A stretch of DNA of 64,000 nt from an uncultured Actinomycetota bacterium. Lineage in GTDB: Bacteria; Actinomycetota; Actinomycetes; JAFAQI01. The DNA lies in NCBI GenBank assembly GCA_963770565.1, contig CAVYQE010000011.1, positions 672,001-736,000 of the forward strand, written 5' to 3'. Below are positions 2-21,658 of the stretch, in pieces. The notes under the pieces were generated by a model that worked only from the letters and a program-made list of their open reading frames with translations, did no database searches and was not told the DNA's origin. Within the stretch, counting starts at the first letter, position 1; each line of letters begins with the position of its first letter. The position numbers and the translations under genes are program-made.

Positions 2-367
2 GTCTACCCGCCGATCGACCCGTTGTCATCGCTGTCGCGGTTGATGCGCAGCGGTGCCGGTCCCGGGCGCACCCGCGAAGACCATCTCGAGTTGGCCGCG
101 CAGTTGCTCGCTGCGCTGGCTCGAGCCCGACAGGTCCAGGAGCTTGCGGAGATCATCGGGATCTCCGCGCTCAGCAGCGCCGACCAGCCCTACCTGGACT
201 TCGCCACCCAGTTCGAGCAGTTGCTCGTCAACCAGCGTCGCGGTGAGAAGCGCTCGATGGAGGAGACGCTCGACCGATGCTGGGACGCGGTCAACGTCCT
301 GCCGACCCGCGAGCTCACCATGCTTTCGAGCCGGTTCCTCGAGGCCCATCCTCGAGCGGAGGCATGA
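2..367 (+). CDS. ntpB: V/A-type ATP synthase subunit B, C-terminal part (5'-truncated by window)
   Basis: Frame reads VYPPIDPLSSLSRLM...GPGRTREDH...ELAEIIG..AL..D..YL.F...FE, the typical V/A-ATPase B C-terminus; followed by a subunit D gene. Confidence 0.9.
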   Translation, partial: VYPPIDPLSSLSRLMRSGAGPGRTREDHLELAAQLLAALARARQVQELAEIIGISALSSADQPYLDFATQFEQLLVNQRRGEKRSMEETLDRCWDAVNVLPTRELTMLSSRFLEAHPRAEA

Positions 368-371
368 GCCG

Positions 372-980
372 ATGCCCGTCGCCAGGAGGATTCCACCGGG
401 TCGGGCCGGGCGGATGTGGTTGCGCGGCCGGCTGGACACCGCGACTCGCGGGCGTGACCAGCTGGACCGCAAGCTCCGCATCCTGATCTCGGAGCAGGAG
501 CGCCTGCAGGCCCGCGCGCAGGAGCGCCAGCAGGCGTGGACCAGTTCGTGCGCCGAGGCGCAGACCTGGTTGCTGCGCGTGACGCTCCTCGGCGGGCAGG
601 ATGCGGTACGCAATGCGACTCCGCTCGAACCGGCGCAGGTGCAGCTGTCCTGGGCGTCCACGATGGGACTGAGGTATCCGGACGATGCCGACCTCTCCGA
701 TGGCCCGGCGCGGTCGGTCTCGGGCAACTCGGCAATCGTTCCGGCGGTCGCCGCTTTCGGCGCCGCACTTCTGGCCGCAGCCCAGGTAGCGGTCGCCCAG
801 GAGGCCTTGCGCCTGGTCGAGGCCGAGGTCGCGGTGACCCGCCGCCGGTTGCGAGCGCTGGACAAGCGGTGGTTGCCCTGGCTACGAGCGCAGCTCGCGT
901 CCCTGGAGCTGACCCTCGATCAGGCCGAGCAGGAGGACGGGATGCGATTGCGCCGCGCGATTGACAGCTCGCCCGGCTAG
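372..980 (+). CDS. ntpD: V/A-type ATP synthase subunit D
   Basis: PPGRAGRMWLRGRL..A.RG...LDRK and TRRRLRALDKRWLP...L.Q.EQED coiled-coil signature; directly after subunit B. Confidence 0.85.
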   Translation: MPVARRIPPGRAGRMWLRGRLDTATRGRDQLDRKLRILISEQERLQARAQERQQAWTSSCAEAQTWLLRVTLLGGQDAVRNATPLEPAQVQLSWASTMGLRYPDDADLSDGPARSVSGNSAIVPAVAAFGAALLAAAQVAVAQEALRLVEAEVAVTRRRLRALDKRWLPWLRAQLASLELTLDQAEQEDGMRLRRAIDSSPG

Positions 981-1801
981 TGCCTTCGCCGCCGGCGTAC
1001 GAGTGACTCGCCCGGGCGCCAGCGGAATGTTAAGCCGATCACTACGGCGGATCCGAGTGCCCAGAAGCCAAGCACCGCAAGCTGTCCGTGGGTGAGAACT
1101 GGACCGGTCGGGTCAGGTCGAAAAAGATGCTCCGCCGCGATGGCGATTGACCGGACCGGGAGCGCAGCCGCGGCATGGCGGAGCCAGTCCGGCGAGCTCG
1201 TCGCGGGGAAGAAGACGTTGGAGATGAACGCAACCGGCAAGAGCGTTCCGTACGAGATTGCCAGCGCCGACTCCGCGTCCGAGACAAGTGTTCCGACGGC
1301 CAGTCCGACCAATGCGAAGCACACCATGCCGAGGGCGCACACCCCGATCAGATCCGGCACGACGCTGGCGTTGAATCGCGCATGCAGCAGCGTGGTGCCG
1401 AGGACGACAACCGCGGCGGCAGACGCCGCTCCCATCGCGATCGCCGCAACGATCCGTCCGGCAAAGTACGCCCACGACGGGAGCGGGGTGCTCCGGAAGC
1501 GCTTGAGTACGCCGTTCTCGCGAGCGGCAACGACCGAGGTCACGACGTTCACGTAGGAGGCGTTCAGCAAGCCGAAGACCGCCATCGCGGGCGTGAGGAA
1601 GTCGGCGTACTTCTGGCCGTTCAGGTCGCGGGGCGGGAAGCTCGGGCCGACCAGATCGAGAGCGACCAGAAGCATGAGCGGAATCACCAGAATGGTGAAT
1701 GTGCTCATACGGTTCCGCAACAGCAGTCGCAGCTGGTATCGGGTCTGCGCGCCCGCGAGCACGATCGTCGGTCGACGACGGTGCTGAACCGGAGCGGTCA
1801 T
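977..1801 (-). CDS. ABC-2 type exporter permease
   Basis: About 6 hydrophobic helices, RENGVLKRFRSTPLP motif, FISNVFFP; 4-nt overlap with ATPase gene. Confidence 0.9.
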   Translation of the reverse strand: MTAPVQHRRRPTIVLAGAQTRYQLRLLLRNRMSTFTILVIPLMLLVALDLVGPSFPPRDLNGQKYADFLTPAMAVFGLLNASYVNVVTSVVAARENGVLKRFRSTPLPSWAYFAGRIVAAIAMGAASAAAVVVLGTTLLHARFNASVVPDLIGVCALGMVCFALVGLAVGTLVSDAESALAISYGTLLPVAFISNVFFPATSSPDWLRHAAAALPVRSIAIAAEHLFRPDPTGPVLTHGQLAVLGFWALGSAVVIGLTFRWRPGESLVRRRRRH

Positions 1802-2769
1802 TGCGCTGTCCCCGTGACGGGTGGGTTGACGGTGGTGAGGTGAAGGTAGGCGTCTTCCAGCGACGGCCGGGTGACGGTAAGTCCGATGAGCTCTTCGCCG
1901 CGGTCATGTGCCCACGCAGTAACCGCGGCCAGGGTTTCGGTCGGCTTGGCGGTCGTGATCCGGACCTCGTGTGCGTCGGTCACCGTCATGGTCCATGGAC
2001 CGGCCTGGAGCTCGCCGTGCCATCCCGGGTACGGCTCCTGGAAGGAGATGATCGCCTCGCCGGCGTCTCGGCCGCCCAGCTCGTTGGGGGTTGACTCCGC
2101 GACGACCCGCCCTTTGCTCATGACGGCGACTCGGTCGGCGAGGTGTTGCACCTCGTCCATGTAGTGACTCGTCAAGAGGATCGTCTTGCCCAGCCGGCGC
2201 AGTTCGGCGACGAGCTCCCAGGCCTGATGGCGGGCACTGGGGTCGAAGCCGGTGGTCGGCTCGTCGAGGAAGATCACTTCGGGATCGCCCACGAGCGCAA
2301 GGGCGAGGTCGAGCCGGCGAAGCTGACCGCCGGACAGCCAGCGAACATGCTGGCGCGCCTGTCGCGAGAGGCCGACCAGCGTCATGACCTCGTCGACCTC
2401 GCGCCGCCTCGGATACAAGTCGGCAAACAATGCGACTGTCTCGCGAACGGTCAGGTCGCCGTCGATCCCGCCGGACTGAAGCACAACGCCGATGCGTTCG
2501 CGGAATCTCCGGTTCGCCCGCCAGGGGTCGACGCCCAGCACCCGAACGCTTCCAGAGTCAGGCTGGCGATGGCCTTCGAGAATCTCGACGGTCGTCGTCT
2601 TGCCCGCGCCGTTGGGTCCGAGGAGGGCAAAGACCTCACCGGTCAGGACCGTCAGCGACAGACCTCCGACCGCAACCAGGCCGCCGTACGTCTTATGGAC
2701 ATCGGACGCCTCAATCGCGGGAATCGGCTCGTTCGAGCGGGTCCCGCCGACTCGATCAGAGGGTTGCAT
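1798..2769 (-). CDS. ABC exporter ATP-binding protein (DrrA/CcmA-like)
   Basis: Walker A GPNGAGKTT, signature LSGGQ, Walker B IFLDEPT, H-loop SHYMDE. Confidence 0.95.
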   Translation of the reverse strand: MQPSDRVGGTRSNEPIPAIEASDVHKTYGGLVAVGGLSLTVLTGEVFALLGPNGAGKTTTVEILEGHRQPDSGSVRVLGVDPWRANRRFRERIGVVLQSGGIDGDLTVRETVALFADLYPRRREVDEVMTLVGLSRQARQHVRWLSGGQLRRLDLALALVGDPEVIFLDEPTTGFDPSARHQAWELVAELRRLGKTILLTSHYMDEVQHLADRVAVMSKGRVVAESTPNELGGRDAGEAIISFQEPYPGWHGELQAGPWTMTVTDAHEVRITTAKPTETLAAVTAWAHDRGEELIGLTVTRPSLEDAYLHLTTVNPPVTGTAQ

Positions 2770-2790: not shown

Positions 2791-3913
2791 GTGTCGCGCG
2801 TCATTAGTTCCTTTACATTGGGGTGAGTTCGCGTCATGCTGTGGCATGGCGCTGTTGACTGCAGGTGTGCAGATCCCTGAGGCGGACCGGGCGACGCTTC
2901 AGAGCTGGTCTCGGTCGACGTCGATCAAGGCCGGGCTGGTGACTCGGGCCAGGATCGTCCTTGCTGCCGGTGACGGCTTGGGCACGACCTCGATCGCTTC
3001 GAAGCTTGGGGTGTCCAGGCCGACGGTGATCCAGTGGCGTGAGCGGTATGCCGCCGAAGGCTTGGCCGGGCTGCAGGACGATCCGCGGTCGGGTCGGCCG
3101 AAGACGGTCGACGACGCGGCGATCCTGGCGATGACGCTCGACCCGCCGCCGGAGCGCCTTGGGGTGACGCACTGGTCCACCCGCCTGCTGGCGGCGGAGC
3201 TGAAGGTCGGCGATGCGACCGTGGCGCGGACGTGGCGCAAGTACTGCGTGCAGCCGTGGCGGCGCGGGACGTTCAAGTTCAGCACCGACCCTGAGTTGGT
3301 GGCGAAGGTCCACGACGTCGTCGGCCTCTACCTGAACCCGCCGGAGAAGGCAGTCGTGCTCTGCGTCGATGAGAAGAGCCAGATCCAGGCACTCGATCGG
3401 ACCGCCCCGATCCTGCCGATGCGCCCAGGGCTGCCGGAGAAGGCCACCCACGACTACAAGCGCAACGGCACCGCGACCTTGTTCGCCGCTCTAGAAGTCG
3501 CGACCGGCAAGGTCACCGACGCCGTCTATGAACGGCACGGAAAAGCCGAGTTCCTCGCGTTCATGAAGCAGGTCGCGAAGGCCTACCCGCGACGTGAGCT
3601 CCACGTCGTGCTGGACAACTACCACACCCACAAGCACACCGAAGTCCAAGCCTGGCTAGCGAAGAACCCTCGCGTCACCTTGCACTTCACACCCACATCG
3701 GGGTCGTGGATGAACATGGTCGAGATCTTTTTCGGGATCATCACCCGCCAAGCGATCCGGCGCGGCAGCTTCGCCAACGTCAAAGAACTCATGGTCGCGA
3801 TCAGCCGCTTCATCGACGGCTGGAACAACCGCTGCCACCCATTCACCTGGACAAAAACGGCGGACGAGATCCTGCCTCACGCCACCCGTCAAGCAACTTC
3901 AGACGCGCGACAC
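2791..3913 (+). mobile_element. IS630-family insertion sequence, complete
   Basis: Terminal IRs GTGTCGCGCGTC (2791-2802) and GACGCGCGACAC (3902-3913), extending to 16/19 identity; flanked by TA at 2789-2790 and 3914-3915 in CTAG context. Confidence 0.95.
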
Positions 3914-3916
3914 TAG
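2846..3916 (+). CDS. IS630 family transposase
   Basis: N-terminal HTH (RSGRP, THWSTR), DDE motifs VDEKSQIQ / VLDNY / SWMNMVE; stop codon formed by right end plus target TA. Confidence 0.95.
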   Translation: MALLTAGVQIPEADRATLQSWSRSTSIKAGLVTRARIVLAAGDGLGTTSIASKLGVSRPTVIQWRERYAAEGLAGLQDDPRSGRPKTVDDAAILAMTLDPPPERLGVTHWSTRLLAAELKVGDATVARTWRKYCVQPWRRGTFKFSTDPELVAKVHDVVGLYLNPPEKAVVLCVDEKSQIQALDRTAPILPMRPGLPEKATHDYKRNGTATLFAALEVATGKVTDAVYERHGKAEFLAFMKQVAKAYPRRELHVVLDNYHTHKHTEVQAWLAKNPRVTLHFTPTSGSWMNMVEIFFGIITRQAIRRGSFANVKELMVAISRFIDGWNNRCHPFTWTKTADEILPHATRQATSDARH

Positions 3917-4108
3917 TTGTGCCCGGGCGGCTCGCTCGGTCGCGACGATGAGATCGTCCTGCACTCCCATCGCGAGCAGCCGCCAACGAGCGCGCAGCAC
4001 GCATTGCGTGACGAGCTTCGCGGATGCGACGTCGGAGTATTCCGCGATGAGGTCCTCGACGAGGTGTGCGAGATCCTCGTTCAGCGGTGGAGCAGTCGGC
4101 GAGATCAT
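3899..4108 (-). CDS. Small helical protein (paralog of 21431-21658), C-terminus altered by IS630 insertion
   Basis: MISPTAPPLNEDLAHLVEDLIAEY...CVLRARWRLLAMGVQDDLIVATERAARAQL aligns by eye with 21431-21658. Confidence 0.7.
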   Translation of the reverse strand: MISPTAPPLNEDLAHLVEDLIAEYSDVASAKLVTQCVLRARWRLLAMGVQDDLIVATERAARAQLVSRV

Positions 4109-4166
4109 GGCCAGCCTTTGGTCGGGATGGTGATCCCACGTTTCCATCGGCGGCGGTTGGCTCACA

Positions 4167-4180
4167 GGGGCGAAAGTCCC
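4167..4180. promoter_or_regulatory. DosR/DevR-like box
   Basis: GGGGCGAAAGTCCC (rc GGGACTTTCGCCCC), ~60 bp upstream of 4108 start. Confidence 0.7.
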
Positions 4181-4231
4181 GACGCCGCACCGCCAATCGC
4201 CCTTCCACACGGGACCGGATGCGGCCCGCTC

Positions 4232-5128: not shown

Positions 5129-5159
5129 GGCTGGCTCCGATCGTGGTGACGTGACTCGG

Positions 5160-6167: not shown

Positions 6168-6225
6168 GGTGTCCTCCGTGAAGTCGATGTAAGTCCAGGC
6201 TGTGTCAACAACCGTCGGGGGACTA

Positions 6226-6239
6226 GGGGCAAAGGTCCT
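6226..6239. promoter_or_regulatory. DosR/DevR-like box upstream of gap
   Basis: GGGGCAAAGGTCCT (rc AGGACCTTTGCCCC). Confidence 0.55.
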
Positions 6240-6296
6240 GCGATCGGCCGAGTCGGTCCCGAGATCCGGTCGTTGCGATCCGCGAGCAGCGAGCGG

Positions 6297-7079
6297 TCAG
6301 GCGATGGCGGGTGAGCGGTCCGCGACGCGACCACTCGTCGTACCGGTGGTCATGTATTCGACCACGCTCTGCCGGTCGAACTCGGCGGCCGGGCCGCTCG
6401 CGACCAGGTGCCCGAGCTGAAGCACCGCGATCCGGCCGGCGACCTCGAACACGTCGTTGAGGTTGTGCGAGATGACGATGACGGCGATGCCTTGCGAAGC
6501 CAGCCGCTTGATCAGGTCGAGGACCATCCGGGTCTGGGTCACGCCGAGCGCGGCGGTCGGCTCGTCCATAATCACGAGCCGGGAGTTCCACATCAGGGTC
6601 TTCGCGACGGCAACGGCCTGCCGCTGCCCGCCGGAGAGCGATCCGACGTGCTGCCGGATCGAGCGGACTGAGGTTACTGAGAGTCGATCAAGGGCGTTGG
6701 CCGCCGAGCGCTCCATCTTGTCTTCGTCCAACAGGAGGTGATGGCGGAGCTGCTCGCGGCCGAGGAAGAGGTTCTGGACGATGTCGAGGTTGTCGGACAG
6801 CGCCAGGTCCTGATACACGGTCTCGATGCCGAGCGTAGCCGCGTCCTTCGGGGAGCGCAGGTGGACCGGCTTGCCCTCCCAGAACATCTGGCCGCTGTCG
6901 GGGGCCCAGATGCCGGCAATGCACTTGATCAGCACCGACTTGCCCGCGCCGTTGTCGCCGGTAAGCGCCGTGACGACGCCGGCCGGAACGTCGAGAGTGA
7001 TGTCCTCGAGGGCACGCACCGGACCGAAGGACTTTCCGACGCCCTCTAGCCGCAACAGTGGAACCGGGCTCTCAGTCAT
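6297..7079 (-). CDS. Single-domain sugar (CUT2-type) ABC ATP-binding protein
   Basis: GDNGAGKS, GIETVYQDLAL, LSGGQRQ, MDEPTAALG, ISHN. Confidence 0.9.
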   Translation of the reverse strand: MTESPVPLLRLEGVGKSFGPVRALEDITLDVPAGVVTALTGDNGAGKSVLIKCIAGIWAPDSGQMFWEGKPVHLRSPKDAATLGIETVYQDLALSDNLDIVQNLFLGREQLRHHLLLDEDKMERSAANALDRLSVTSVRSIRQHVGSLSGGQRQAVAVAKTLMWNSRLVIMDEPTAALGVTQTRMVLDLIKRLASQGIAVIVISHNLNDVFEVAGRIAVLQLGHLVASGPAAEFDRQSVVEYMTTGTTSGRVADRSPAIA

Positions 7080-7148
7080 TCCTTCACCTCGGGCTTGCGC
7101 GATCCGTGCCGTCACCTCAAGTAGGTCACGATCACTAATCCCGGGCCA

Positions 7149-7162
7149 GGGCCGAAAGGCCC
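7149..7162. promoter_or_regulatory. DosR/DevR-like box
   Basis: GGGCCGAAAGGCCC palindrome upstream of 7079 start. Confidence 0.55.
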
Positions 7163-7203
7163 ACGCGGAGCAGGCAGTCGGACCTCAATGTCAGGCCGTC
7201 GGG

Positions 7204-8832
7204 TCAGGTCTGCTCGGGCACCATGTCGATCGCGCCGCAGGGACACTCGGCGACGCACAGCCCGCATCCCTTGCAGTGGTCGAAGTCGAAGGCGTACGAG
7301 CCGCTGCCGAGCTTGATGACGGCGTTGTCGGGGCAAACTCCGTAGCAGTTGTCGCAACCGAAACAGTTGCCGCATGACAGGCAGCGCCGGGCTTCGAACA
7401 AGGCAGTGGACTCGTCGAGACCGGCGTCGATCTCGTCGAAGGTCGATGCCCGGCGGGCCGCCTCGAGCTGTGCCTGCACCGACGGCGGTGCATCGGAGTA
7501 GTACCAGGTGTTGAGCCGGTCACTCGTCGCGAGCGCAGGTCGCGTGGGCGCCGCCCACTGCTCGTTGCGCAGCCAGGCATCGATGTTGCGGGCCGCTCGC
7601 TTGCCATGACCGATTGCCGTGGTCGCAGTTCGGTGTCCGGCGGTCATGTCGCCGCCGGCGAAGATCCCGGTGTGACCGGTCATCTGGTCCGAGCCGACCA
7701 TCACCGCGCCATCGCGGACCTCGATGCCCGTGACCTGGTCGAGAAGGCGAAGGTCGACGTCCTGTCCGAGCGCCAACACGACCGTGTCGGCATCGAGTTC
7801 CTCGAACTCGCCGGTCGGCTGCGGGAAGCCGCTCTCGTCGAGCTGCATCCGCTCGACCGTGACGTGTTCGCCGTCGGTCGCGGCGATCGTGGACAGCCAC
7901 TGGACTCGCACGCCTTCGGCGATCGCGGCCTCGAGGTCCTCAGAACGGGCCGGCATCTGCTCGCGGTTACGGCGGTAGACGATGACGGTGTCGGTGGCGC
8001 CCAGCCGCTTGGCGGTGCGGGCCGCGTCCATGGCGGTGTCGCCGCCGCCGTACACGATGACCCGGCGTCCGATGTTCGGCCGGTCGGCAGCGGCGTTGGT
8101 GTCGTGCAGCAGCGCGATCGCGTCGACGATCCGAGCCGAGTCGCCGGCGGGGATGTCGGCATGCTTGCTCACCTGCGCGCCGACCGCGAGCAGTACGGCG
8201 TCGGCGTTCTCGGCCTGCATGGTGGCGTCGAGGTCGTCCACCCGCGAGCCGGACCGGACCGTGATCCCCAGCGCGACCAGCCTGGCAATCTCGGCATCGA
8301 GAACGTTGCGAGGAAGGCGGTATTGCGGGATTCCGTAGCGCATCATTCCGCCGAGCTCGGGCTCGGCGTCGATGATCGTGACGTCGTGGCCGTAGCGCCG
8401 TAGCTGGTACGCCGCCGACAGACCGCACGGGCCGGAGCCGACGACGAGCACCCGCTTGCCGGTCGGCGCCGCGTCGACCGTGATCGACCAGCCGTTGGCG
8501 ATCGCCTGGTCACCGAGGAAGCGCTCGATCGAGTGGACCCCGACCGCCTCGTCGACCTGTGCACGATTGCACGCCGTCTCGCACGGGTGATAGCAGATCC
8601 GCCCCATCACCGCCGGCAACGGGTTGTCGACCATGATCTGCCGCCAGGCCTGCTCGTAGTCGGCCGATTCGGCGTGGTAGAGCCAGCCTTGGATGTTCTC
8701 CCCGGCCGGGCAGGCGTCGTTGCAGGGCGGCATCAGGTCGACGTACAGCGGCCGCTCGGTCCGCCACGTCCCAGTGAGGTTGGCTTTGCTGGTCGCGATG
8801 TCGAGCGTGATTGCGAAGGGCTTCTCGCTCAT
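7204..8832 (-). CDS. GltD/SudA-like FAD/NAD(P) oxidoreductase with C-terminal 2x[4Fe-4S] ferredoxin domain
   Basis: PPCNDACP...GRICYHPCETAC, GSGPCGLSAA, GGGDTAMD, CLSCGNCFGCDNCYGVCP, CKGCGLCVAECP; ATGA overlap with porB. Confidence 0.9.
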   Translation of the reverse strand: MSEKPFAITLDIATSKANLTGTWRTERPLYVDLMPPCNDACPAGENIQGWLYHAESADYEQAWRQIMVDNPLPAVMGRICYHPCETACNRAQVDEAVGVHSIERFLGDQAIANGWSITVDAAPTGKRVLVVGSGPCGLSAAYQLRRYGHDVTIIDAEPELGGMMRYGIPQYRLPRNVLDAEIARLVALGITVRSGSRVDDLDATMQAENADAVLLAVGAQVSKHADIPAGDSARIVDAIALLHDTNAAADRPNIGRRVIVYGGGDTAMDAARTAKRLGATDTVIVYRRNREQMPARSEDLEAAIAEGVRVQWLSTIAATDGEHVTVERMQLDESGFPQPTGEFEELDADTVVLALGQDVDLRLLDQVTGIEVRDGAVMVGSDQMTGHTGIFAGGDMTAGHRTATTAIGHGKRAARNIDAWLRNEQWAAPTRPALATSDRLNTWYYSDAPPSVQAQLEAARRASTFDEIDAGLDESTALFEARRCLSCGNCFGCDNCYGVCPDNAVIKLGSGSYAFDFDHCKGCGLCVAECPCGAIDMVPEQT

Positions 8833-9833
8833 CGCGCACCGCCTTCGGTGATGAGGCCGTAACGGGCGATGTTGCGGTCGGCGTCGGCTTGGATCCGGCC
8901 GATGACCTCTTCGTTGGGTTCCGGCCGGAACAAGTGCGCGTAGCGGCCCTGCAGCTTCAGGTAGTCGGTCACCGGGACGGGTCGACGGAGCGGCGTGACC
9001 TCGACGACCGCACCGTCCTCGGCCGCGAACACCGGGAACAGCCCGGTCTGGGTCGCGAGCCGGGCGATCAGGATGGTCTGGTTCGAGTCGGTCTCCCAAC
9101 CGAGCGGGCACGGCACCAGGACGTGCAGATAGCGCGCCCCGCGAAACTCCATCGCCCGCCGGACCTTCGCCTCGAGGTCGCGCAGGTCGGCGACGGTCGC
9201 GGTTGCGACGTACGGCAGCCGGTGCGCCATCGCGATCGTCGGCACATCCTTGCCCTGCCCGAACCGGTTGCCCGGGTGTGGACCAAGGGCAGGGGTCGTC
9301 GCAGTCCGTGCGGCCGGAGGCGTCGCGCCCGAGCGCTGGACGCCCGTGTTCATGTAGCCCTCGTTGTCGTAGCAGATGTAGAGCACGTCGTCGTTGCGCT
9401 CGAACATGCCGGACAGGCAGGCGAAGCCGATGTCGACCGTGCCGCCGTCGCCGCCCTGAGCAATGACTCGGATATCGGTGCGACCCTGCGCCTGCAGCGC
9501 GGCCGCGACCCCGGTGGCGACCGCGGCGGCATTGCCGAACAACGAGTGCAGCCACGGCACCTGCCAGGCCGACTCGGGGTAAGGCGTGGTGAAGACCTCG
9601 AGGCAGCCGGTCGCGTTGACGACGACCAGCTTTCCGCCGCTCGCCTCCAACGCGGTGTCCAGCGCGTAGCGGGCGCCGAGCGCCTCGCCGCAGCCGCGGC
9701 AGGCCCGGTGACCGCAGGTGATCGCGTTGGCCCGGTCGGTCTCGGACTGGACGGACTGCAGTTCGAGCGGGAGCAGTCGGTTGCCGACCGCGTGGCTGCC
9801 GACTTGGTAGAACTTCACCGGTGTTGCGGTCAT
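8829..9833 (-). CDS. porB: Pyruvate/2-oxoacid:acceptor oxidoreductase beta subunit (TPP-binding)
   Basis: ACRGCG, GGDGG...DIGF, YDNEGYMNTGVQRS, PCPLGW. Confidence 0.92.
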   Translation of the reverse strand: MTATPVKFYQVGSHAVGNRLLPLELQSVQSETDRANAITCGHRACRGCGEALGARYALDTALEASGGKLVVVNATGCLEVFTTPYPESAWQVPWLHSLFGNAAAVATGVAAALQAQGRTDIRVIAQGGDGGTVDIGFACLSGMFERNDDVLYICYDNEGYMNTGVQRSGATPPAARTATTPALGPHPGNRFGQGKDVPTIAMAHRLPYVATATVADLRDLEAKVRRAMEFRGARYLHVLVPCPLGWETDSNQTILIARLATQTGLFPVFAAEDGAVVEVTPLRRPVPVTDYLKLQGRYAHLFRPEPNEEVIGRIQADADRNIARYGLITEGGAR

Positions 9834-11032
9834 CGGGTGCCTCCGGTGCGCGCGGGTGTCGAGGGGAGTACGGCAGCGATCGCGGCGCGGTCGAGGTCGA
9901 GGAAGGTCAAGGGGTCGAGCGTGTCGCCTTCGGCGGCGGTGATCATCGTGCGAAGCGAGGAACGGGTGATCGGCCGGCCGCCGAGCCCGGCGATCACCGT
10001 CGAGATCTCGACGCCGGTGCCGGCCAGCGCGGAGCGGACATCGGTGGTGACGGTTTCGCCGCTACCGGGGGCCAGTGAGCGCTCCACCACCACCACTCGC
10101 CGTGCCCCGTCGATCGCGTCGCGAACGGCGGCCGCGGGGAACGGGCGGTACGACGTGATCCCGAGGACGCCGACCCGATGTCCATCGGCCCGCAGGCCGT
10201 CGACGGTGTCCTTGAGGGTGCCGAGCACTGAGCCGAGCGCGATCACGACGGTGTCGGAGTCGGCGCTGAGATACGGGGAGACCAAGGATGCGCCGGCCCG
10301 CCCGACGATCGACTCGAACCGCGACCCGACCTCGGGGATCACGCTGAGCGCGCGCTGATGAGCAGCGTGGGCGAGGTAGCGGACCTCGGTGAATGCCTCC
10401 GGACCGACCATGGCACCGATCGACACCGGCGCCTGCGGGTCGAGCACCTGCCGTGGCTGGTAGGCCGGCAGGAACTCGTCGACCTGCTCAGCAGTCGGCA
10501 ACTCGACCTGCTCGAAGGCGTGCGTGAGAACGAAGCCGTCCATGCAGACCATGACCGGCAGGGACAACTCCTCGGCGATCCGGAACGCCTGCACATGCAA
10601 GTCGACTGCCTGCTGGTTGTCCTCGGCGAACAGTTGCAGCCACCCGCAGTCGCGCTGGGACATGCTGTCGCTGTGGTCGTTCCAGATGTTGATGGGGGCA
10701 CCGATGGCGCGGTTGGCGACTGTCATGACGATCGGCAGACCAAGACCGGCGGCGTTGTAGAGCGCCTCGGCCATATAGAGCAGGCCCTGGCTCGCCGTTG
10801 CGGTGTAGGCACGGGCACCGGTGGCCGAAGCGCCGATCGCCACGGACAGGGCAGCGAACTCCGACTCGACGTTGATGAACTCGCACGGAGACAGTGATCC
10901 GTCCCAGACCATCCGGCTCAAGCCCTCGACGATGTGGGTCTGCGGGGTGATCGGGTATGCGCAGACCACTTCGGGGCGGCAGCGGGCGACCGCTTTGGCT
11001 ACTGCCACTGACCCTTCGAGCTGCTCAAACAC
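9830..11032 (-). CDS. porA: Pyruvate/2-oxoacid:acceptor oxidoreductase alpha subunit
   Basis: AYPITPQT, VESEFAALS, TATASQGL, ANRA, DGFVLTH. Confidence 0.92.
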   Translation of the reverse strand: MFEQLEGSVAVAKAVARCRPEVVCAYPITPQTHIVEGLSRMVWDGSLSPCEFINVESEFAALSVAIGASATGARAYTATASQGLLYMAEALYNAAGLGLPIVMTVANRAIGAPINIWNDHSDSMSQRDCGWLQLFAEDNQQAVDLHVQAFRIAEELSLPVMVCMDGFVLTHAFEQVELPTAEQVDEFLPAYQPRQVLDPQAPVSIGAMVGPEAFTEVRYLAHAAHQRALSVIPEVGSRFESIVGRAGASLVSPYLSADSDTVVIALGSVLGTLKDTVDGLRADGHRVGVLGITSYRPFPAAAVRDAIDGARRVVVVERSLAPGSGETVTTDVRSALAGTGVEISTVIAGLGGRPITRSSLRTMITAAEGDTLDPLTFLDLDRAAIAAVLPSTPARTGGTR

Positions 11033-11612
11033 CGGCTGCCTCCTGATGGCGGGTCTGCACGCTGTCGAAGGCTTCGCGCGCGGCGGCGGCGTTCTTCTCG
11101 CCGATCGGGCCGGCGAATCGTTCCTTCAGTGCGCGCTCGATGTCGGCGATCGGCACCACGCCGGTCAGCGCCGCGAAGCCCCCGAGCATCACGCCGTTGG
11201 GCAGCGGTCGGCCGAAGTGCCGCAGGGCGATCTCGGTTGCCGGCACGCAGACCACGCCGGCCCGGCCTTCGTCGGTCAGCTCGGTGAGGCCGAGTTCGGC
11301 GACCGGATGCGCGGAGTTGATGAGCACCACGCCGCCCGGCTTGAGTCCCTGGAAGACGTCGACCGCGTGGAGCAAGGTCGAGTCCAGGATGATGACCGCA
11401 TCCGGGGTGACGACGGGCTCGCGCAACCGGATCGGCCGGTCGTCAATCCGGCAGAACGACGCCACCGGGGCGCCCGCTCGCTCGGATCCGAAGCTCGGGA
11501 ACGCCTGAGCGGTGCTGCCGGCATCGAAAGCGGCGACCGAGAGCAACTCGGCGGCGGTCACCGCGCCTTGCCCGCCCCGCCCGTGGATCCGGACCTCATA
11601 CATGGCGGCCAC
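11025..11612 (-). CDS. porC: Pyruvate/2-oxoacid:acceptor oxidoreductase gamma subunit
   Basis: EVRIHGRGGQGAVTA, FPSFGSERAGAPV; start may be ATG at 11603. Confidence 0.92.
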   Translation of the reverse strand: MAAMYEVRIHGRGGQGAVTAAELLSVAAFDAGSTAQAFPSFGSERAGAPVASFCRIDDRPIRLREPVVTPDAVIILDSTLLHAVDVFQGLKPGGVVLINSAHPVAELGLTELTDEGRAGVVCVPATEIALRHFGRPLPNGVMLGGFAALTGVVPIADIERALKERFAGPIGEKNAAAAREAFDSVQTRHQEAAGV

Positions 11613-11672
11613 TGAGGTGGCACAGAATTCGGGTCATGACTTGATCGTGCGTGCCGGCCGGGCGCAGTGATA

Positions 11673-11707
11673 GGGGAATTGGTCCCGTGCTCGGGGTATT
11701 TCGACCC
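11673..11707. promoter_or_regulatory. Tandem DosR/DevR-like boxes upstream of the por operon
   Basis: GGGGAATTGGTCCC (11673-11686) and GGGTATTTCGACCC (11694-11707), 21 bp apart. Confidence 0.6.
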
Positions 11708-11731
11708 CGTCAGCCGCATCGGGTCGATGCG

Positions 11732-11929
11732 TTACCTCGCCGCCCTGCGGTGATGGACCTCGGTGTCGTTGCCGGGGAAGAGCAGGCCCTCGTGACCGGT
11801 GTCGGCCCACCGGACGAGGTACGGCGGTGCGCCGTCGGCGCCGTGCACCTCCAGGACCTCCGCATCCCGAACCGGGCCGTCGACGACCGGGGACTTGACC
11901 ACAAGCCGGTCTCCTGGTGATGCCTGCAC
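11732..11929 (-). CDS. DUF1918 domain protein (Rv0569-like)
   Basis: MQASPGDRLVV...EVLEVHGADGAPPYLVRW.D.GHE.L.FPG.D; RBS AAGGAGGAG. Confidence 0.9.
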   Translation of the reverse strand: MQASPGDRLVVKSPVVDGPVRDAEVLEVHGADGAPPYLVRWADTGHEGLLFPGNDTEVHHRRAAR

Positions 11930-11987
11930 GGCTCCTCCTTCGCTCGGATGTCACCCGGAGTGTGAGCCGACCGCGGGCCTGACTAAA

Positions 11988-12023: not shown

Positions 12024-12114
12024 TAGTCGCGGTCGCCCAGGGCGAGAAGAATCGACGTCGCAAGGCGATGCGCCGTCAGTCGGTGCGCGCCTTCGGGTGG
12101 ATCAGGAGAGTCCG

Positions 12115-13665
12115 ATGGACGATCGCGCCGAGGCTGTCAGCAACCGTCCGATTCCGTGGGCGGCCTGCGTAGAAACGCAATCCTCCGCCGTGTTCATGGC
12201 CGGTGACCGGGTGTTGAAGATGAAGAAGCCGATCCGGACCGCCTTTCTCGACTACAGCTCGCTCGAAGCCCGCGAAGCTGCCTGTGACTCGGAGGTGCGT
12301 CTCAACGCCCGGCTGAGCCCGGATGTGTATCTCGGGGTGGTCCACATCGGGCTGTACGACGGCGGCCCTGGCGAGCCGGTCGTCGTGATGCGTCGGCTCC
12401 AGGAGCGCGATCAGCTTCGGGTCCGGATGGCGCAGGGCGACCCGCAGCTGCGCGCGGAGATCCGCGAGGTGGCCCGGCGGATTGCCGTGTTCCACAGCGA
12501 GTGCGACGTCTACTCCGGACCCGACTCGGCCGGATCGTGGGAAGCCGTTCACGCCCGCTGGCTCGAGGAGTGCGACGAAATCGACCTGCTCGGGGACGCC
12601 ACGTCCGACGCCGAGGACCGGCGGGCATTGCGGGTGCTCGGGACGCGATACCTCGCCGGGCGCGAGCCGCTGTTCGATGGCCGCCTCCTTGACGGCCAGG
12701 TGCGGGAGGGTCACGGCGATCTCCGGTCCGAGCATGTCTACCTGACCTCGGACGGCCCGCGAATCATCGACTGCGTGGAGTTCGATCCGCAGCTGCGGGT
12801 CGCCGATGTGCTCTCCGACGTCGCGTTTCTCGCGATGGACCTCGAGCAGCGCGACCGGGCCGATCTCGCCGAAGCACTGCTCTCGGACTATCGGGAGTTC
12901 AGCGCGACGCAGTACCCGGAGTCCCTGCTCGAGTTCTACGTCGCCTATCGGGCCCTGGTGCGCGCCAAGGTCCACGCCATCCGTGCCCGGCAGATCGGCG
13001 TCACCGACCCCGAATCCGCCCGGCTCGTGCAGATGGCGCTGGTGCACCTGCGCCGGGCGATGCCGACGATGATCTGCGTCGGTGGCCTTCCGGGCACGGG
13101 CAAGTCGACGGTCAGCGAGGCGTTCGCGGCCACCCGCGACGCCGTTCATCTGTCCTCGGACGAGATCCGGCACGGGCTCGCGGCCGGCACCGGCAGCAGC
13201 GGCGATGGCGCGAAGTGGGAGACCGGCATCTACGCGACCGAGGTGACCGAGCGGGTCTATCGCGAGCTGTTCGGTCGGGCCGAGGCGGCCTTGCGCGAGG
13301 GCTACAGCGTGGTTCTCGATGCCTCCTGGCGCGACGCCGGGCGTCGTAGCCAGGCGCGCTCGGTGGCCGGGGCGTGCTGGAGCGTGCCGGTCGAAATCAG
13401 GTGCGATGTCGACCAGCGGGTGGCGTTGCAGCGCCTGACCGGGAGCCGACTGGGCTTCTCGCAGGCCGGCGTCGACGTCCGCGAGGAGATGCGCAACGCG
13501 TTCGCCGAATGGCCGACGGCGCGGGTGCTGACCACGAATCGCGACCTCGAGGCCACGCTGCGTGAGCTTGGCGAGTGGGTCGACGCTGAGGTGGTCGCCG
13601 TCACCGCGGGCGGAGGGTCGTCTCCACGAGACGCGCGATCTCCAGCTCTTCATGGGCAGCGATGA
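12115..13665 (+). CDS. Bifunctional APH-like kinase / AAA_33 P-loop protein (Rv2004c-like)
   Basis: KMKKP...FLDYS, REGHGDLRSEH, IIDCVEF, DVAFLAMDL, C-terminal GLPGTGKST and VVLDASW. Confidence 0.9.
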   Translation: MDDRAEAVSNRPIPWAACVETQSSAVFMAGDRVLKMKKPIRTAFLDYSSLEAREAACDSEVRLNARLSPDVYLGVVHIGLYDGGPGEPVVVMRRLQERDQLRVRMAQGDPQLRAEIREVARRIAVFHSECDVYSGPDSAGSWEAVHARWLEECDEIDLLGDATSDAEDRRALRVLGTRYLAGREPLFDGRLLDGQVREGHGDLRSEHVYLTSDGPRIIDCVEFDPQLRVADVLSDVAFLAMDLEQRDRADLAEALLSDYREFSATQYPESLLEFYVAYRALVRAKVHAIRARQIGVTDPESARLVQMALVHLRRAMPTMICVGGLPGTGKSTVSEAFAATRDAVHLSSDEIRHGLAAGTGSSGDGAKWETGIYATEVTERVYRELFGRAEAALREGYSVVLDASWRDAGRRSQARSVAGACWSVPVEIRCDVDQRVALQRLTGSRLGFSQAGVDVREEMRNAFAEWPTARVLTTNRDLEATLRELGEWVDAEVVAVTAGGGSSPRDARSPALHGQR

Positions 13666-17034: not shown

Positions 17035-17194
17035 TACCAATCACTGTGTCACCGCAGCGGCAGTCCCTCCTCAGTGGCCCGTGCGAGGTGGACTATCCGG
17101 CCGAGCCCCCGCTCGCGCCGGCCATCTGCCGGGGTCGTGTCCATATGCATCGCGAGCGGGTTCGGATGGGGTGCGTGCGGCGTAGGTTTGCGCT

Positions 17195-18600: not shown

Positions 18601-18613
18601 GCGATCGTCAGCC

Positions 18614-19331: not shown

Positions 19332-20081
19332 TCAGACCTCCAGGGTGTCGCATCGCCGCGCCACCTGGATCTCGCCGGTATAGGCGGCGGTCGCCTCGGC
19401 CAGCGTCCGGGACTCGTCGTTCCACGACACCAGGTGGGTGAGCATCAACCGGGATGCGCCGGCCCGGGTCGCGTGCTCGCCGGCCTCCCGGCCGGTCAGG
19501 TGGATGTCCGGCGGGTTGTCCTCGCCGTCGAGGTATGACGCCTCGCACAAGAACAGGTCGACGTCGCGGGCGAGATCGACCAGCGCGTCGCAAGGGGCGG
19601 TGTCCGCGCTGTAGGCGAGGGTGCGGCCGCCGGCGCTGACTCGCATGCCGTAGGTCTCGACCGGATGGTTGACCCGGCGAAGGTCGACCTCGAACGGCCC
19701 GATGCGCACCGTGCTGTCGACCCCCACCGGGTGGAAGCCGTAGACCGAGCCGAGCAGTTCTTCGGCGTTGCGCGGGTAGGCGCGATGGACCGCGTCCTTG
19801 ATGCCGCTCGGGCCGTAGATCGGGAGCCGCGGTGCGGCCCCGTCGGGGTGGTATCGCCGCGCATACGCGTAGGTGATGAGGTCCAGGTAGTGGTCGCCGT
19901 GCAGATGCGAGACGACCACCGCATCCGGGCCGAGCAGCCCGCAGGTCTTGTCCAGCGTGCCGGTCGATCCGTTGCCGACGTCGAGCAGCAGGCGGAACCC
20001 GTCCTGCTCGATCAGGTACGACGAGCAACCCGAGTCGGCGGCCGGAAAGGTGCCGGCGCAGCCGAGAATCGTGAGTTTCAC
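19332..20081 (-). CDS. MBL-fold metallohydrolase (RNase Z/Rv1339-like phosphodiesterase)
   Basis: LTILGC.G.FP...CSSYL, SHLHGDH, YSADT, HLTGREAG, LTHL. Confidence 0.9.
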   Translation of the reverse strand: MKLTILGCAGTFPAADSGCSSYLIEQDGFRLLLDVGNGSTGTLDKTCGLLGPDAVVVSHLHGDHYLDLITYAYARRYHPDGAAPRLPIYGPSGIKDAVHRAYPRNAEELLGSVYGFHPVGVDSTVRIGPFEVDLRRVNHPVETYGMRVSAGGRTLAYSADTAPCDALVDLARDVDLFLCEASYLDGEDNPPDIHLTGREAGEHATRAGASRLMLTHLVSWNDESRTLAEATAAYTGEIQVARRCDTLEV

Positions 20082-20150
20082 GGCCGGCTCGACCGGGGGT
20101 CGGCAACGTCATCCACGCCAGAACAATACGGGTTGCCGGGATCGGTTCTG

Positions 20151-20186
20151 AGGGCCTTCGTCCCTTGATGTCGGGCCGTTCGCCAC
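20151..20186. promoter_or_regulatory. Tandem DosR/DevR-like boxes between MBL hydrolase and acg
   Basis: AGGGCCTTCGTCCC (20151-20164) and GGGCCGTTCGCCAC (20173-20186). Confidence 0.65.
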
Positions 20187-20312
20187 TGTCGCCAGGACCG
20201 GCCGGCGTCAATGCTCAAGGTAGGAGCCGTCCTGACCTCAGCGGGTTCGCGGCGGTTCGCACATCCCGGGCGTTGCCCGATCGGCGACGCGGCCACCGGA
20301 GAGGAGTGCGTC

Positions 20313-21317
20313 ATGCCATCGAAGATCAGTCATTCCGACCTCAGCGAGTCGCAGGTCAACTGGGTGGTCAGTCAGGCGACCCGAGCACCATCGGTCTGCA
20401 ACACCCAGCCATGGCGGTTCCAGTGGGACGGCAAAACCTTCTCGTTGATCGCCGATCTTGGTCGTGGCCTGGTGGTCAGTGACCCGGTCGGCCGCGAACT
20501 TGTGATCAGTTGCGGGGCGGCGCTGTTCAACCTCCGGCTCGCTTTGCGGCATCTCGGGCTGCAGGGCCGGGTTCAGATCTTTCCCGACCGAAAGGACCCA
20601 CACCTGCTCGCGACCGTCGACGTTGTGGACGGGACTCCGATCGAGCCCGCCGAGAAGCGCTGGTTCACCGCGTTGCCGCGGCGGCACACCCACCGGACCC
20701 GGTTCAGCGATCGCCCGATGAGCCCGGCGCTCGCCGTACGACTGCAAGAGGCGGCGGAGTCAGAGGGTGCAGTTCTCGAGTACGTCCGCGACCCCGGCCC
20801 GACTCGCCGGATCCTGGACCTGGCCCGGACCGCTGAAGCGTTGCGCGCGAGTGATCCCGAGGCGCAGGCCGAGATGGCGCAGTGGACCCCGGAACCGAGC
20901 AGCGCCCGGCGCGACGGCGTACCCGCGCGCTCCTACAGTTCTGGCCCGCCGGCGGCAGGCCAGGGCGACCTTGCCGGTCGCGACTTCGACCTGGGTCGCG
21001 ACTTCGGCCGCGCCGAGCCCGAGCAGCAGCCACCGACCGCGATCGCGGCCCTTGTCACCGAGGGTGACCTTGCCCCCGACTGGCTCCAGGCCGGCCAAGC
21101 GCTCGAGGCGGTCTTGCTCGCCGCCGCGGCGGAGTGGTCGTTTGCTTCCATTCACAGTCGGATCACCGAGGTTCCCAACCTGCGGGCCGAGTTGCGGCGC
21201 GAACTTGCCACCGCCGGTTATCCGCAGCTCCTCCTTCGGTTCGGCTACGCCGAGGCCACGGCGACCACCCCGCGCCGCCCGACCGCGGAGGTCATCGACC
21301 TCACCGCGCGAGCCTGA
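20313..21317 (+). CDS. acg: Acg-family FMN-binding nitroreductase-like protein
   Basis: RAPSVCNTQPWRF, DPVGRELVISCGAALFNL, RRHTHR, WLQAGQALE, PQLLLRFG, TPRRP. Confidence 0.92.
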   Translation: MPSKISHSDLSESQVNWVVSQATRAPSVCNTQPWRFQWDGKTFSLIADLGRGLVVSDPVGRELVISCGAALFNLRLALRHLGLQGRVQIFPDRKDPHLLATVDVVDGTPIEPAEKRWFTALPRRHTHRTRFSDRPMSPALAVRLQEAAESEGAVLEYVRDPGPTRRILDLARTAEALRASDPEAQAEMAQWTPEPSSARRDGVPARSYSSGPPAAGQGDLAGRDFDLGRDFGRAEPEQQPPTAIAALVTEGDLAPDWLQAGQALEAVLLAAAAEWSFASIHSRITEVPNLRAELRRELATAGYPQLLLRFGYAEATATTPRRPTAEVIDLTARA

Positions 21318-21354
21318 TCAAAGCTGGTCAGGGCCCGGCTGACTATGCGCAGTG

Positions 21355-21368
21355 GGGACCTTCGGCCC
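21355..21368. promoter_or_regulatory. DosR/DevR-like box
   Basis: GGGACCTTCGGCCC, ~60 bp upstream of 21431 start. Confidence 0.7.
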
Positions 21369-21430
21369 TACCCGTCCAGCAGGTCCCGATCTGAAACTTG
21401 GTGAGCGGAGCCCACCGAGGAGTGTGAGCA

Positions 21431-21658
21431 ATGAGCGTTGCGCAGCAGACCCAACTTCGTGACGACACGCTCGACCTCGTCAGCCGCTTGGTCCTGGAGT
21501 ACGACGGACGGGTTCCGCCGGCCGTGGTGATCCGTTGCCTTTCACAGGTCCGCTGGGAACTGCAGGCGGTTGGACTCCACGATGACCTGATCGATCTCAC
21601 CGAGCAGCGCGCGCGGATGCGGCTGGACGATCGGCCCGGAGCACGCGGCGCCGCCTGA
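21431..21658 (+). CDS. Small helical protein (paralog of 3899-4108)
   Basis: RBS GAGGAG; LVSRLVLEY...VIRCL...RWEL.A.G..DDLI...E.RAR.RL. Confidence 0.8.
   Translation: MSVAQQTQLRDDTLDLVSRLVLEYDGRVPPAVVIRCLSQVRWELQAVGLHDDLIDLTEQRARMRLDDRPGARGAA

Follow-up and report, generated by a model that had tools for sequence, protein, structure and literature searches.

We examined the stretch C11:672001-736000 (the window; 64 kb) from the genome of an uncultured Actinomycetota bacterium, a 4.43-Mb assembly in 11 contigs with ~68% G+C whose nearest named relative found is an uncultured Frankiaceae metagenome-assembled genome (MAG). The intergenic DNA of an accessory island in this window carries recurrent short palindromes. 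We take these, with a probability of about 0.8, to be predicted sites of a DosR/DevR-type regulator, which would make the island part of the host DosR regulon. The in-silico evidence covers the identity of the sites, their enrichment, their architecture, the presence of a regulator and a kinase, and the conservation of boxes at a 2-oxoacid oxidoreductase operon and a V/A-type ATPase (V-ATPase) operon; that DosR binds these sites, which signal induces the response, whether genes are activated or repressed and what this does for the cell are inferences.

In the DosR/DevR box, G6 and C8 are the critical bases. The accepted 20-bp sequence is NNNGGGHCNWWNGNCCCBNN, according to a supplement legend (PMC2947987). 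A first-pass annotation of the window had listed ten coordinates of a palindrome GGGAC-N4-GNCCC and likened it to the mycobacterial site. A DosR-like sequence does lie at each of the ten, but the strict pattern GGGACNNNNGNCCC fits only 4167 and 21355 (2/10); it also matches at 62285, a perfect palindrome absent from the earlier list. When the published 14-bp DosR/DevR core GGGHCNWWNGNCCC is used with at most one mismatch, nine of the ten sites are recovered, all nine of them intergenic, the exception being 11988. We then derived a matrix de novo. Its seeds were intergenic matches to GGGAC-N4-GTCCC that deviated at no more than one position, the four central bases being left free, and it was iterated and palindromised. 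The matrix converged on nTAGGG[A/C]C[G/C]WW[C/G]G[T/G]CCCTAn and did the same when contig C11 was left out; the central WW and the TA flanks emerged although neither had been seeded. This consensus equals the box given in the supplement legend, and the likeness to the DosR/DevR box is thereby borne out. Scores of the listed sites (Table 1) come from a held-out matrix, trained on the other ten contigs with C11 excluded.

The sites are concentrated in intergenic DNA. In the intergenic DNA of the island (1,394 bp between 2770 and 21707) there are nine core sites with at most one mismatch, compared with 0.30 +/- 0.55 in 2000 dinucleotide-preserving shuffles of the same intergenic segments, none of which (0/2000) reached nine. 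Comparison with shuffled intergenic DNA had been set beforehand as a possible refutation, and none resulted. Genome-wide, the exact core occurs at 41 intergenic and 9 coding sites, a 24-fold difference in density (2.2-fold with one mismatch), and five of the seven perfect GGGAC-N4-GTCCC palindromes are intergenic, with 1.1 expected. On C11, of which 11.4% is intergenic, the held-out matrix finds 16 intergenic versus 3 coding sites at a score of at least 14, and it reaches a score of at least 8 at only 20 of the ~64,000 positions of the window. The intergenic set was defined by our own codon-bias gene caller (84% of the genome covered); unannotated genes would weaken the contrast between intergenic and coding DNA and not inflate it.

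The arrangement of the boxes in part resembles that of known DevR promoters. Tandem, helically phased boxes are described as a hallmark of all DevR promoters, with poorly conserved secondary boxes, and at tgs1-Rv3131 the primary (P) and secondary (S) sites lie at -42.5 and -63.5 (PMC3177182). The spacing given earlier for the tandem copies (21-22 bp) is confirmed, at 21, 22 and 22 bp, although low scores (7.9 and 4.5) mark two of the three partner boxes; at boxes 4164, 6223, 7146 and 21352 no partner was detected. When 56 primary intergenic sites genome-wide (score at least 13) were scanned for a second box (score at least 5) at offsets of 12-60 bp, only the 22-bp offset was populated (5 counts, 4 pairs), compared with ~0.06 expected per offset. 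Among 50 site-gene pairs (score at least 13, distance at most 130 bp), with start codons called blind to the sites, 11 have the box centre 42-44 bp before the called start codon. These would be leaderless genes, of which the window contains only the one at 61775-62248. A second class has box centres 65-70 bp ahead of start codons that follow a Shine-Dalgarno sequence, and its members would have leaders of ~23-27 nt. To this class belong small genes A and B, the gene for glyceraldehyde-3-phosphate dehydrogenase (GAPDH), the gamma gene of the oxidoreductase, the gene that opens the V-ATPase operon and the gene at 26935.

The first-pass annotation had placed the regulator outside the window. Consistent with this, the window encodes no GerE-type regulator, while contig C1 carries two DosR orthologues and a DosS-like kinase; a check for a DosR orthologue in the genome therefore brought no refutation. 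DosR1 (C1:1007358-1008017, 219 aa, NarL/LuxR family) aligns over its full length to Mycobacterium tuberculosis DevR (3c3w, E 1.4e-79), and its DNA-reading helix FLAEKTVKNYVS is identical to that of 3c3w. The second paralogue (C1:981305-981946; 8.5e-79 to 3c3w) is 82% identical to DosR1 and has the same helix. It forms an operon with a co-oriented BON-domain gene, the two together lying at C1:981305-982439 (L005:6302-7439), and a box at C1:982472 (16.3) is centred 42 bp before the start of this BON-domain gene. Directly upstream of dosR1 and dosS, no box with a score of at least 11 was found. The DosS/DosT-like kinase (C1:1010721-1012457, 578 aa) has the domain order GAF-GAF-HisKA_3-HATPase_c, and its GAF-A domain matches the heme domains of DosT and DevS with E values of 8e-50 to 2e-47 (2vzw 7.7e-50; DevS GAF-A ~1e-48). 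Judged by this match, the kinase may sense low O2, NO or CO through its heme-GAF domain.

The surroundings of dosR (C1:975-1020 kb) are a typical DosR regulon core. Boxed genes there include several universal stress proteins (USPs), cydABDC, an arginine deiminase operon, an alcohol dehydrogenase (ADH), an ABC transporter and a Pat-like acetyltransferase gene, and an Acg-like nitroreductase gene and CBS-domain genes are present as well. The box at cydABDC is the best in the genome (23.9), and the box at arcA-arcB-arcC scores 12.2 (C1:985-1016 kb; L001, L002). The Pat-like gene (902 aa, GNAT plus NDP-forming acyl-CoA synthetase) has a box of 21.7, and the boxed ADH is of the zinc type. DosR orthologues of at least 57% identity occur in most of the 60 relatives sampled. 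Because nearly all relevant genomes have DosR, setting its presence against the presence of boxes at the oxidoreductase and V-ATPase operons has no discriminating power.

Two regulators of this kind leave room for a response other than the hypoxic one. The operators could be real and yet be read mainly by the second DosR paralogue or serve a general stress or developmental programme, as OsdR does in Streptomyces, in which case an 'anaerobic energy' reading would be wrong or incomplete. Pointing in this direction are the existence of two paralogues with identical recognition helices, of which only the second has a box before its own operon (directly upstream of dosR1 and dosS none reaches 11), and the finding that OsdR binds DevR-type sites and controls stress and development genes (PMC5069765). 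However, the kinase beside dosR1 closely matches the heme GAF-A of DevS and DosT, and low-oxygen functions dominate the regulon (cytochrome bd, the arginine deiminase pathway, USPs, Acg and the 2-oxoacid oxidoreductase). We consider a non-hypoxic response improbable, though it is the strongest competitor to a low-oxygen DosR regulon.

The first of the two conserved predicted targets is the V-ATPase operon, whose 3' end opens the window and which had been described as lying next to the island, possibly maintaining ion-motive force. It is more than a neighbour: the operon carries boxes of its own, and these are widely conserved among actinobacterial loci. It begins outside the window, 6.6 kb upstream (L003:10356, C11:665356), with two genes without a family match followed by those for subunits I, c/K, F, E, A, B and D. 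In the c subunit, aligned to V-type c subunits, the membrane glutamate is kept within GLAEGIAIYGL. A box at L003:10277 (score 13.8) is centred 69.5 bp before the first ATG. A second box (L003:10156, score 16.8) lies 121 bp further up and nearer to a divergent gene for an acidic protein (L003:9690-10106, minus strand; 138 aa, no family known), before whose ATG it is centred by ~59 bp. An ABC ATPase gene in the neighbourhood of the V-ATPase operon is preceded by a perfect box (21.2), and the gene for a CtpF-like P-type ATPase between those features has no box of its own with a score of at least 11.

Among six published relatives that have the second gene of the V-ATPase operon, four carry a strong box at the operon start. 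We extended this comparison to 80 named loci from 444 relatives, of which 76 have at least 1 kb of upstream DNA (L059, L064, L065 and L092 were dropped), by scoring 550 bp over the operon start. As controls we used mononucleotide shuffles, two coding windows and a window 2 kb further upstream. At a score of at least 10, a box was present in 33 of the 76 loci, against 3.05 in shuffles, 1/76 in each coding window and 11/70 in the upstream window. The corresponding values were 20/76, 1.04, 1/76 and 5/70 at a score of at least 12, and 8/76, 0.33, 0/76 and 4/70 at a score of at least 14. Eighteen of the 33 matches fall into one 50-bp bin, and in 14 of the 30 loci with a placed first-gene start the box is centred 56-77 bp before that start, compared with 69.5 bp here. 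Among the hosts are Nocardioides, Cellulomonas, Pedococcus, Phycicoccus, Lentzea, Actinomadura and Hamadaea species and many MAGs.

The second conserved predicted target is a four-gene oxidoreductase operon. Its subunit genes are gamma (11025-11612), alpha (9830-11032) and beta (8829-9833), and the fourth gene (7204-8832) encodes a GltD-like NAD(P)-binding flavoprotein fused to a PorD-type 2x[4Fe-4S] domain. The first-pass annotation had labelled this enzyme 'POR'. A gamma/alpha/beta oxidoreductase is indeed present, but the PorA-D cut-offs do not support a four-subunit pyruvate:ferredoxin oxidoreductase of the Por type. Scores exceed the cut-offs of TIGR02175 (199 vs 81), NF009410 (730 vs 516) and TIGR02179 (61.2 vs 60.05), whereas the Por equivalog cut-offs are all missed (PorA 443 vs 550, PorB 326 vs 405, PorC 212 vs 270). 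The profiles thus suggest a 2-oxoacid:acceptor oxidoreductase of the pyruvate/ketoisovalerate group, an assignment to the group, short of a substrate. Since the delta ferredoxin is fused to a GltD-like NAD(P)-binding flavoprotein, the enzyme is probably linked to pyridine nucleotides, with electrons passing to or from NAD(P). In this it resembles the NADH-dependent phenylglyoxylate dehydrogenase PadE-I: the subunits match PadG, PadI and PadE (E 4e-79, 3e-58 and 6e-48) as well as PorA-C, and both systems have a flavin/NAD(P)-binding subunit in the operon, which here is of the GltD type and fused to the PorD ferredoxin domain. The Pad equivalog cut-offs are also missed by the oxidoreductase subunits.

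The proximal box of the tandem pair at 11670/11691 is centred 67.5 bp before the start of the gamma gene. The order of the four genes is kept in seven relatives, four of which carry a box no more than 100 bp upstream of gamma, and in three relatives (G028, G037 and G010) a box lies directly after the fourth gene, as does the box at 7146 here. We also surveyed an even sample of 400 genomes of the class, in which 28 others have the gamma gene and 27 of these have usable upstream DNA. A box within 150 bp upstream of the gamma gene was found in 11 of the 27 at a score of at least 10 and in 10 at a score of at least 12, compared with 0.28 and 0.06 in shuffles; an equal coding control window gave 0/27.

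A number of results weigh against the assignment to a DosR regulon, or against its reach. Over the whole window, GGGACNNNNGNCCC occurs 4 times where 2.06 are expected, a count attained by 16 of 100 shuffles; GGGNC-N4-GNCCC (GGGNCNNNNGNCCC) has 4 against 4.84; GGGAC-N4-GTCCC (GGGACNNNNGTCCC), with at most two mismatches, has 35 against 82.4; and GGGHCNWWNGNCCC, with at most one mismatch, has 27 strand matches (16 sites) against 17.1 +/- 5.3, a number that 6 of 100 shuffles attain. Some of the boxes in the island score low (6223, 10.3; 11670, 10.9; 11691, 7.9; 11985, 4.5). No TANNNT -10 hexamer was found at a fixed distance from box centres, and a scan with the sigma-70 consensus returned 0 promoters. 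A look-up of RNA runs covering 4100-14000 of the window found none. Intergenic calls rest on a home-made gene caller, and the full matrix was trained on intergenic sites and is hence flattered, for which the held-out matrix and the published consensus served as an offset. Conservation is frequent rather than universal: 43 of the 76 V-ATPase loci and 16 of the 27 oxidoreductase operons have no match of at least 10. The enrichment 2 kb upstream of V-ATPase operons (11/70) indicates that the neighbourhood is often a DosR island, so that some matches may serve neighbouring genes. Related genomes and loci are kin and not independent, and the conservation fractions are accordingly descriptive, with no formal tests. 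Finally, the DNA upstream of the phosphoketolase gene Xfp (17035-17278) has no DosR box (best score 4.2), and among Xfp loci (our own and those of 16 published relatives) only 2 of 17 have any match of at least 9 within 400 bp upstream.

As the whole-window counts lie within the shuffle range, positional tests were used instead, and the case rests on position. Those counts also bear on the possibility that the palindromes arose by chance as G+C-rich inverted repeats, or are structural in nature (hairpin terminators, REP-like sequences), and are read by no regulator. At 7149, immediately behind an operon, GGGCCGAAAGGCCC could fold into a hairpin with a stem of 5 bp and a GAAA loop, and other intergenic palindrome families exist in this genome: CGGTC-N4-GACCG has 114 intergenic versus 37 coding sites (an example in the window lies at 23747-23800). 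Similarly, GGCTC-N4-GAGCC has 53 intergenic versus 9 coding sites genome-wide; these two palindromes seem to represent one or two families of REP-like elements or operators without relation to DosR. However, shuffling the island's intergenic DNA never reproduces its nine sites, the central WW and the flanking TA/TA arose unseeded, and boxes keep fixed spacings to start codons (42-44 or 65-70 bp) and, in the genome-wide scan, to partners (exactly 22 bp). Furthermore, no terminator-like site coincides with a box, the one at 7146 included, and positions are conserved across families while the sequence drifts inside the consensus. An origin by chance or structure is thus largely refuted, and we consider it the least likely of the explanations weighed here. 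Sites for a DosR-type regulator remain our preferred reading of the palindromes.

The same data narrow the set of predicted targets. The first-pass annotation had put Xfp and acetate kinase (AckA) at the core of a DosR-controlled route to ATP. This part of the proposal is not supported: a box is lacking here and in 15 of 16 relatives, the congener G003 among them, and few Xfp loci have any match of at least 9 (L143 and L154, from unpublished genomes, and the 5'-truncated L155 were left out of that count). Xfp-AckA is inside the island but outside the predicted direct targets. Both proteins pass their profiles (phosphoketolase 1458 vs 962; AckA, TIGR00016, 353.8 vs 293.4). AckA (344 aa) keeps the canonical N-terminal NAGSSSLK motif, though its N-terminal domain is ~45 residues shorter than usual; its start codon overlaps the stop codon of Xfp by one base (TGATG), and G003 is arranged alike. 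A truncated AckA pseudogene, suggested by Pfam and PDB alignments that start at profile position ~65-82, was rejected because the DNA has the canonical N-terminus at the TGATG overlap and a shorter internal segment, as in the congener. In a complete genome of the class (G042:C1:4298628-4304691), Xfp lies ~3 kb from a DosR orthologue and yet has no box of at least 9 within 400 bp upstream, so Xfp may associate with DosR islands by neighbourhood and not by motif. Between Xfp and the gene for a metallo-beta-lactamase-fold (MBL) hydrolase, at 17279-19276, are three genes without a solid family assignment, all kept in G003; their products are 134, 306 and 220 aa long, the second being a membrane protein with a weak likeness to HTTM.

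GAPDH and an aldolase had also been assigned to a DosR box. A box is present before GAPDH, but it is weak (10.3), and its sequence is the same only in G003, a congener too close to inform. Aldolase homologues occur in only 3 of 60 relatives, and the aldolase itself falls below the NCBIfam equivalog cut-offs (222 vs 277).

The claim that genes of known DosR-regulon families sit at boxed promoters held up for the DUF1918 protein, the Acg-family protein and a kinase-like protein with APH and P-loop domains, by family profiles and box scores. Rv0569 belongs to the DUF1918 family (PMC2998474). Rv2004c is a dosR-regulon gene with phosphotransferase activity (PMC8701281); the label 'Rv2004c-like' for 12097-13665 expresses an agreement in domain content (APH and AAA_33) and description only. 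The best PDB match of the Acg-family protein is the Acg nitroreductase 2ymv (E 1.4e-23). A strong Shine-Dalgarno sequence, GGAGAGGAG, precedes the ATG at 20313, and alignments begin just after it; automated annotation may therefore over-extend this gene, whose start is likely 20313 and not 20211 (the longest open reading frame). Small genes A and B are the sole two copies in the genome. More generally, family profiles confirmed the annotated identities of V-ATPase subunits B and D, the DeoC/DhnA-type aldolase, GAPDH, oxidoreductase gamma, alpha and beta, DUF1918, Xfp, AckA and the Acg family. The open reading frame 23810-25534 was tried as a second V-ATPase subunit and rejected, with zero family matches.

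Table 1. Genes and predicted DosR-type boxes in the window (window coordinates; box scores from the held-out matrix; 'core' gives the first base of the 14-bp core)
Feature	Position	Strand	Evidence and remarks
V/A-type ATPase operon, 3' end	2..980	+	Subunit B C-terminus 2-367, subunit D ~414-980; Pfam ATP-synt_VA_C, ATP-synt_D
IS630-family (DDE_3) transposase	2846..3916	+	Pfam DDE_3 and HTH domains; inside island
Small gene A, 69 aa, three-helix-bundle dimerization domain	3899..4108	-	NCBIfam NF046112, 29.5 bits vs 25
DosR-type box (core 4167)	4164..4183		Score 17.9; 65.5 bp before small gene A ATG
GAPDH, then DhnA/DeoC-type class I aldolase, operon	GAPDH 5160-6167, aldolase 4232-5179	-	GAPDH TIGR01534 408 vs 367
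Weak DosR-type box (core 6226)	6223..6242		Score 10.3; 1 mismatch to core; 65.5 bp before GAPDH ATG
Single-domain sugar-type ABC ATPase	6297..7115	-	Pfam ABC_tran; RbsA-like half
DosR-type box (core 7149)	7146..7165		Score 13.4; exact published core; 40.5 bp before ABC ATPase GTG 7115, just after oxidoreductase operon
2-Oxoacid:acceptor oxidoreductase operon, 4 genes	7204..11612	-	Pfam POR, POR_N, PFOR_II, TPP_enzyme_C, Fer4_20, Pyr_redox_2, Fer4
Tandem DosR-type boxes before oxidoreductase (cores 11673, 11694)	11670..11710		11670-11689 score 10.9; 11691-11710 score 7.9; 21 bp apart
DUF1918 protein	11732..11929	-	PF08940, E 2.9e-27
DosR-type box and weak partner (cores 12010, 11988)	12007-12026, 11985-12004		Scores 13.8 and 4.5; 22 bp apart; divergent DUF1918/kinase-like intergenic DNA; position kept in G003
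APH-like phosphotransferase and P-loop (AAA_33) protein	12097..13665	+	Pfam APH, AAA_33
Phosphoketolase Xfp and acetate kinase AckA	Xfp 14635-17040, AckA 13601-14635	-	Overlap TGATG, translationally coupled
MBL-fold hydrolase, RNase Z/cyclic-nucleotide phosphodiesterase-like	19332..20081	-	Pfam Lactamase_B_2; NF041851 218, below 400
Tandem DosR-type boxes (cores 20151, 20173)	20148-20167, 20170-20189		Scores 10.9 and 14.4; 22 bp apart; divergent MBL/Acg intergenic DNA; both kept in G003
Acg-family FMN-binding oxidoreductase	20313..21317	+	NF047509 292.5 vs 199, profile positions 2-319/319
DosR-type box (core 21355)	21352..21371		Score 17.7; exact published core; 69.5 bp before small gene B
Small gene B, 75 aa	21431..21658	+	Paralogue of small gene A; tblastn 40% identity, E 4e-7
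DosR-type box outside earlier range	26860..26879		Score 12.3; 65.5 bp before AAT-family gene 26935-28005
Hypothetical gene, 157 aa	61775-62248	-	Box spacing as expected for leaderless transcript
Strongest DosR-type box of the window (core 62285)	62282..62301		Score 19.7; perfect GGGAC-CAAC-GTCCC; 43.5 bp before ATG 62248

The IS630 transposase gene lies between an ABC exporter pair and small gene A, with its 3' end overlapping the stop region of the latter (3899-3916), and may be a sign of recent rearrangement of the island. A transposase inside the island would also suit a recently acquired mobile block, whose boxes would be relics of a donor and unused by the present host. The island's content is patchy in the family, as such a history would have it: the oxidoreductase occurs in 3/35, gene 2 of the V-ATPase operon in 2/35, Xfp in 5/35 and the aldolase in 1/35. 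However, DosR and DosS are both encoded intact in the host, whose core dosR island shows the same motif, and the boxes are kept in G003 with substitutions that stay within the consensus. Moreover, the level of DosR identity among most sampled relatives means that donor and host would read the same sites. We therefore regard unused donor relics as very unlikely, and sites that belong to the host's own DosR regulon as the better account of the island.

Such a regulon has close counterparts. The M. tuberculosis DevR/DosR system shares the GGGHC-NWWN-GNCCC motif within a 20-bp palindrome, the regulator fold, the recognition helix and the heme-GAF-type kinase. Its regulon shares the target families USP, Acg/Rv3131 nitroreductase-like, DUF1918 (Rv0569), CBS and APH-type like Rv2004c; its helically phased tandem boxes and its proximal box ~42 bp from the start have partial counterparts here, in partners at 21-22 bp, two of them weak, and in boxes 42-44 bp before some start codons. 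Unlike in M. tuberculosis, boxes here also precede a V/A-type ATPase, GAPDH-aldolase, genes for small three-helix-bundle proteins and a four-subunit 2-oxoacid oxidoreductase that includes an NAD(P)-binding subunit, target classes of which none is named as a DosR target in the literature searched; the host also differs in being an uncultured soil actinobacterium with two DosR copies. Outside mycobacteria, Streptomyces coelicolor OsdR/OsdK is a DevR orthologue system with a conserved palindrome, AGGGCCGATCGGCCCT. Its sites were verified by electrophoretic mobility shift assay. The targets, among them USPs, a nitroreductase, pyruvate phosphate dikinase and Nar2, are grouped near the regulator gene; the word 'ATPase' is absent from the main text of that paper, and no oxidoreductase operon is named in the text consulted (PMC5069765). 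The centre of the OsdR consensus is G/C-rich (GATC), whereas the centre here is WW as in mycobacteria.

Rhodococcus equi was scanned in silico with a Park-type 20-bp consensus, as we did here, and also has Xfp and DosR-regulon homologues, which the accessible text mentions separately and unlinked (PMC2947987). In M. smegmatis, two devR clusters are hypoxia-induced, and a putative POR/KOR is up 4-fold in a report that does not, in the part available, tie it to DosR (PMC2799521). DosR-type regulons are also described in M. avium and M. abscessus. The V-ATPase itself resembles the V/A-type enzymes of Enterococcus hirae (Ntp) and Thermus thermophilus in subunits I, c/K, F, E, A, B and D and in the glutamate of c. 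Control of V/A-type ATPases by a DosR box is not described in the literature searched, and a DosR box at either a V/A-type ATPase or an NAD(P)-linked 2-oxoacid oxidoreductase was not found in print; comparative regulon listings and PDF supplements were outside that search, and priority is not certain. Thus the existence of a DosR regulon here is ordinary, and its extension to an energy module is possibly new and conserved.

By homology to these systems, the heme-GAF DosS/DosT-type kinase on C1 would sense low O2, NO or CO and phosphorylate one or both DosR paralogues. Binding of DosR dimers would then involve a strong primary box and, through cooperativity, a weaker one at a distance of two helical turns (21-22 bp), and with the promoter-proximal box ~42-43 bp upstream of the transcription start, transcription would be activated. 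The predicted targets are the V/A-type ATPase operon, the oxidoreductase operon, the ABC ATPase gene and, as the weakest case, GAPDH-aldolase; they also include the genes for the DUF1918 protein, the APH/P-loop kinase-like protein, the MBL hydrolase, Acg and the two small three-helix-bundle proteins, and two genes further along the window.

DosR is the best-studied actinobacterial dormancy switch, but from the targets known so far little can be learned about the upkeep of energy and membrane potential when there is no respiration. Our findings suggest that outside the well-studied mycobacteria DosR is wired to a second rotary ATPase, of the V/A type, and to a 2-oxoacid oxidoreductase that brings an NAD(P)-binding subunit of its own. 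In cultured, harmless genera (Nocardioides, Cellulomonas, Pedococcus, Phycicoccus, Lentzea, Actinomadura and others) the two connections are found again at conserved distances, which opens the idea to direct testing. More tentatively, and with the odds somewhat against it, in many Actinomycetota DosR may directly switch on the V/A-type ATPase and the NAD(P)-linked 2-oxoacid oxidoreductase as a conserved module for energy maintenance at low oxygen. If so, the V-ATPase would spend ATP from substrate-level phosphorylation, supplied by lower glycolysis, by cleavage of acetyl-phosphate or acetyl-CoA and by arginine deiminase, to hold the membrane potential when respiration stalls, while the oxidoreductase would balance pyridine nucleotides and ferredoxin. 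This would offer a testable answer to the question of how largely aerobic actinobacteria stay energised in hypoxic dormancy.

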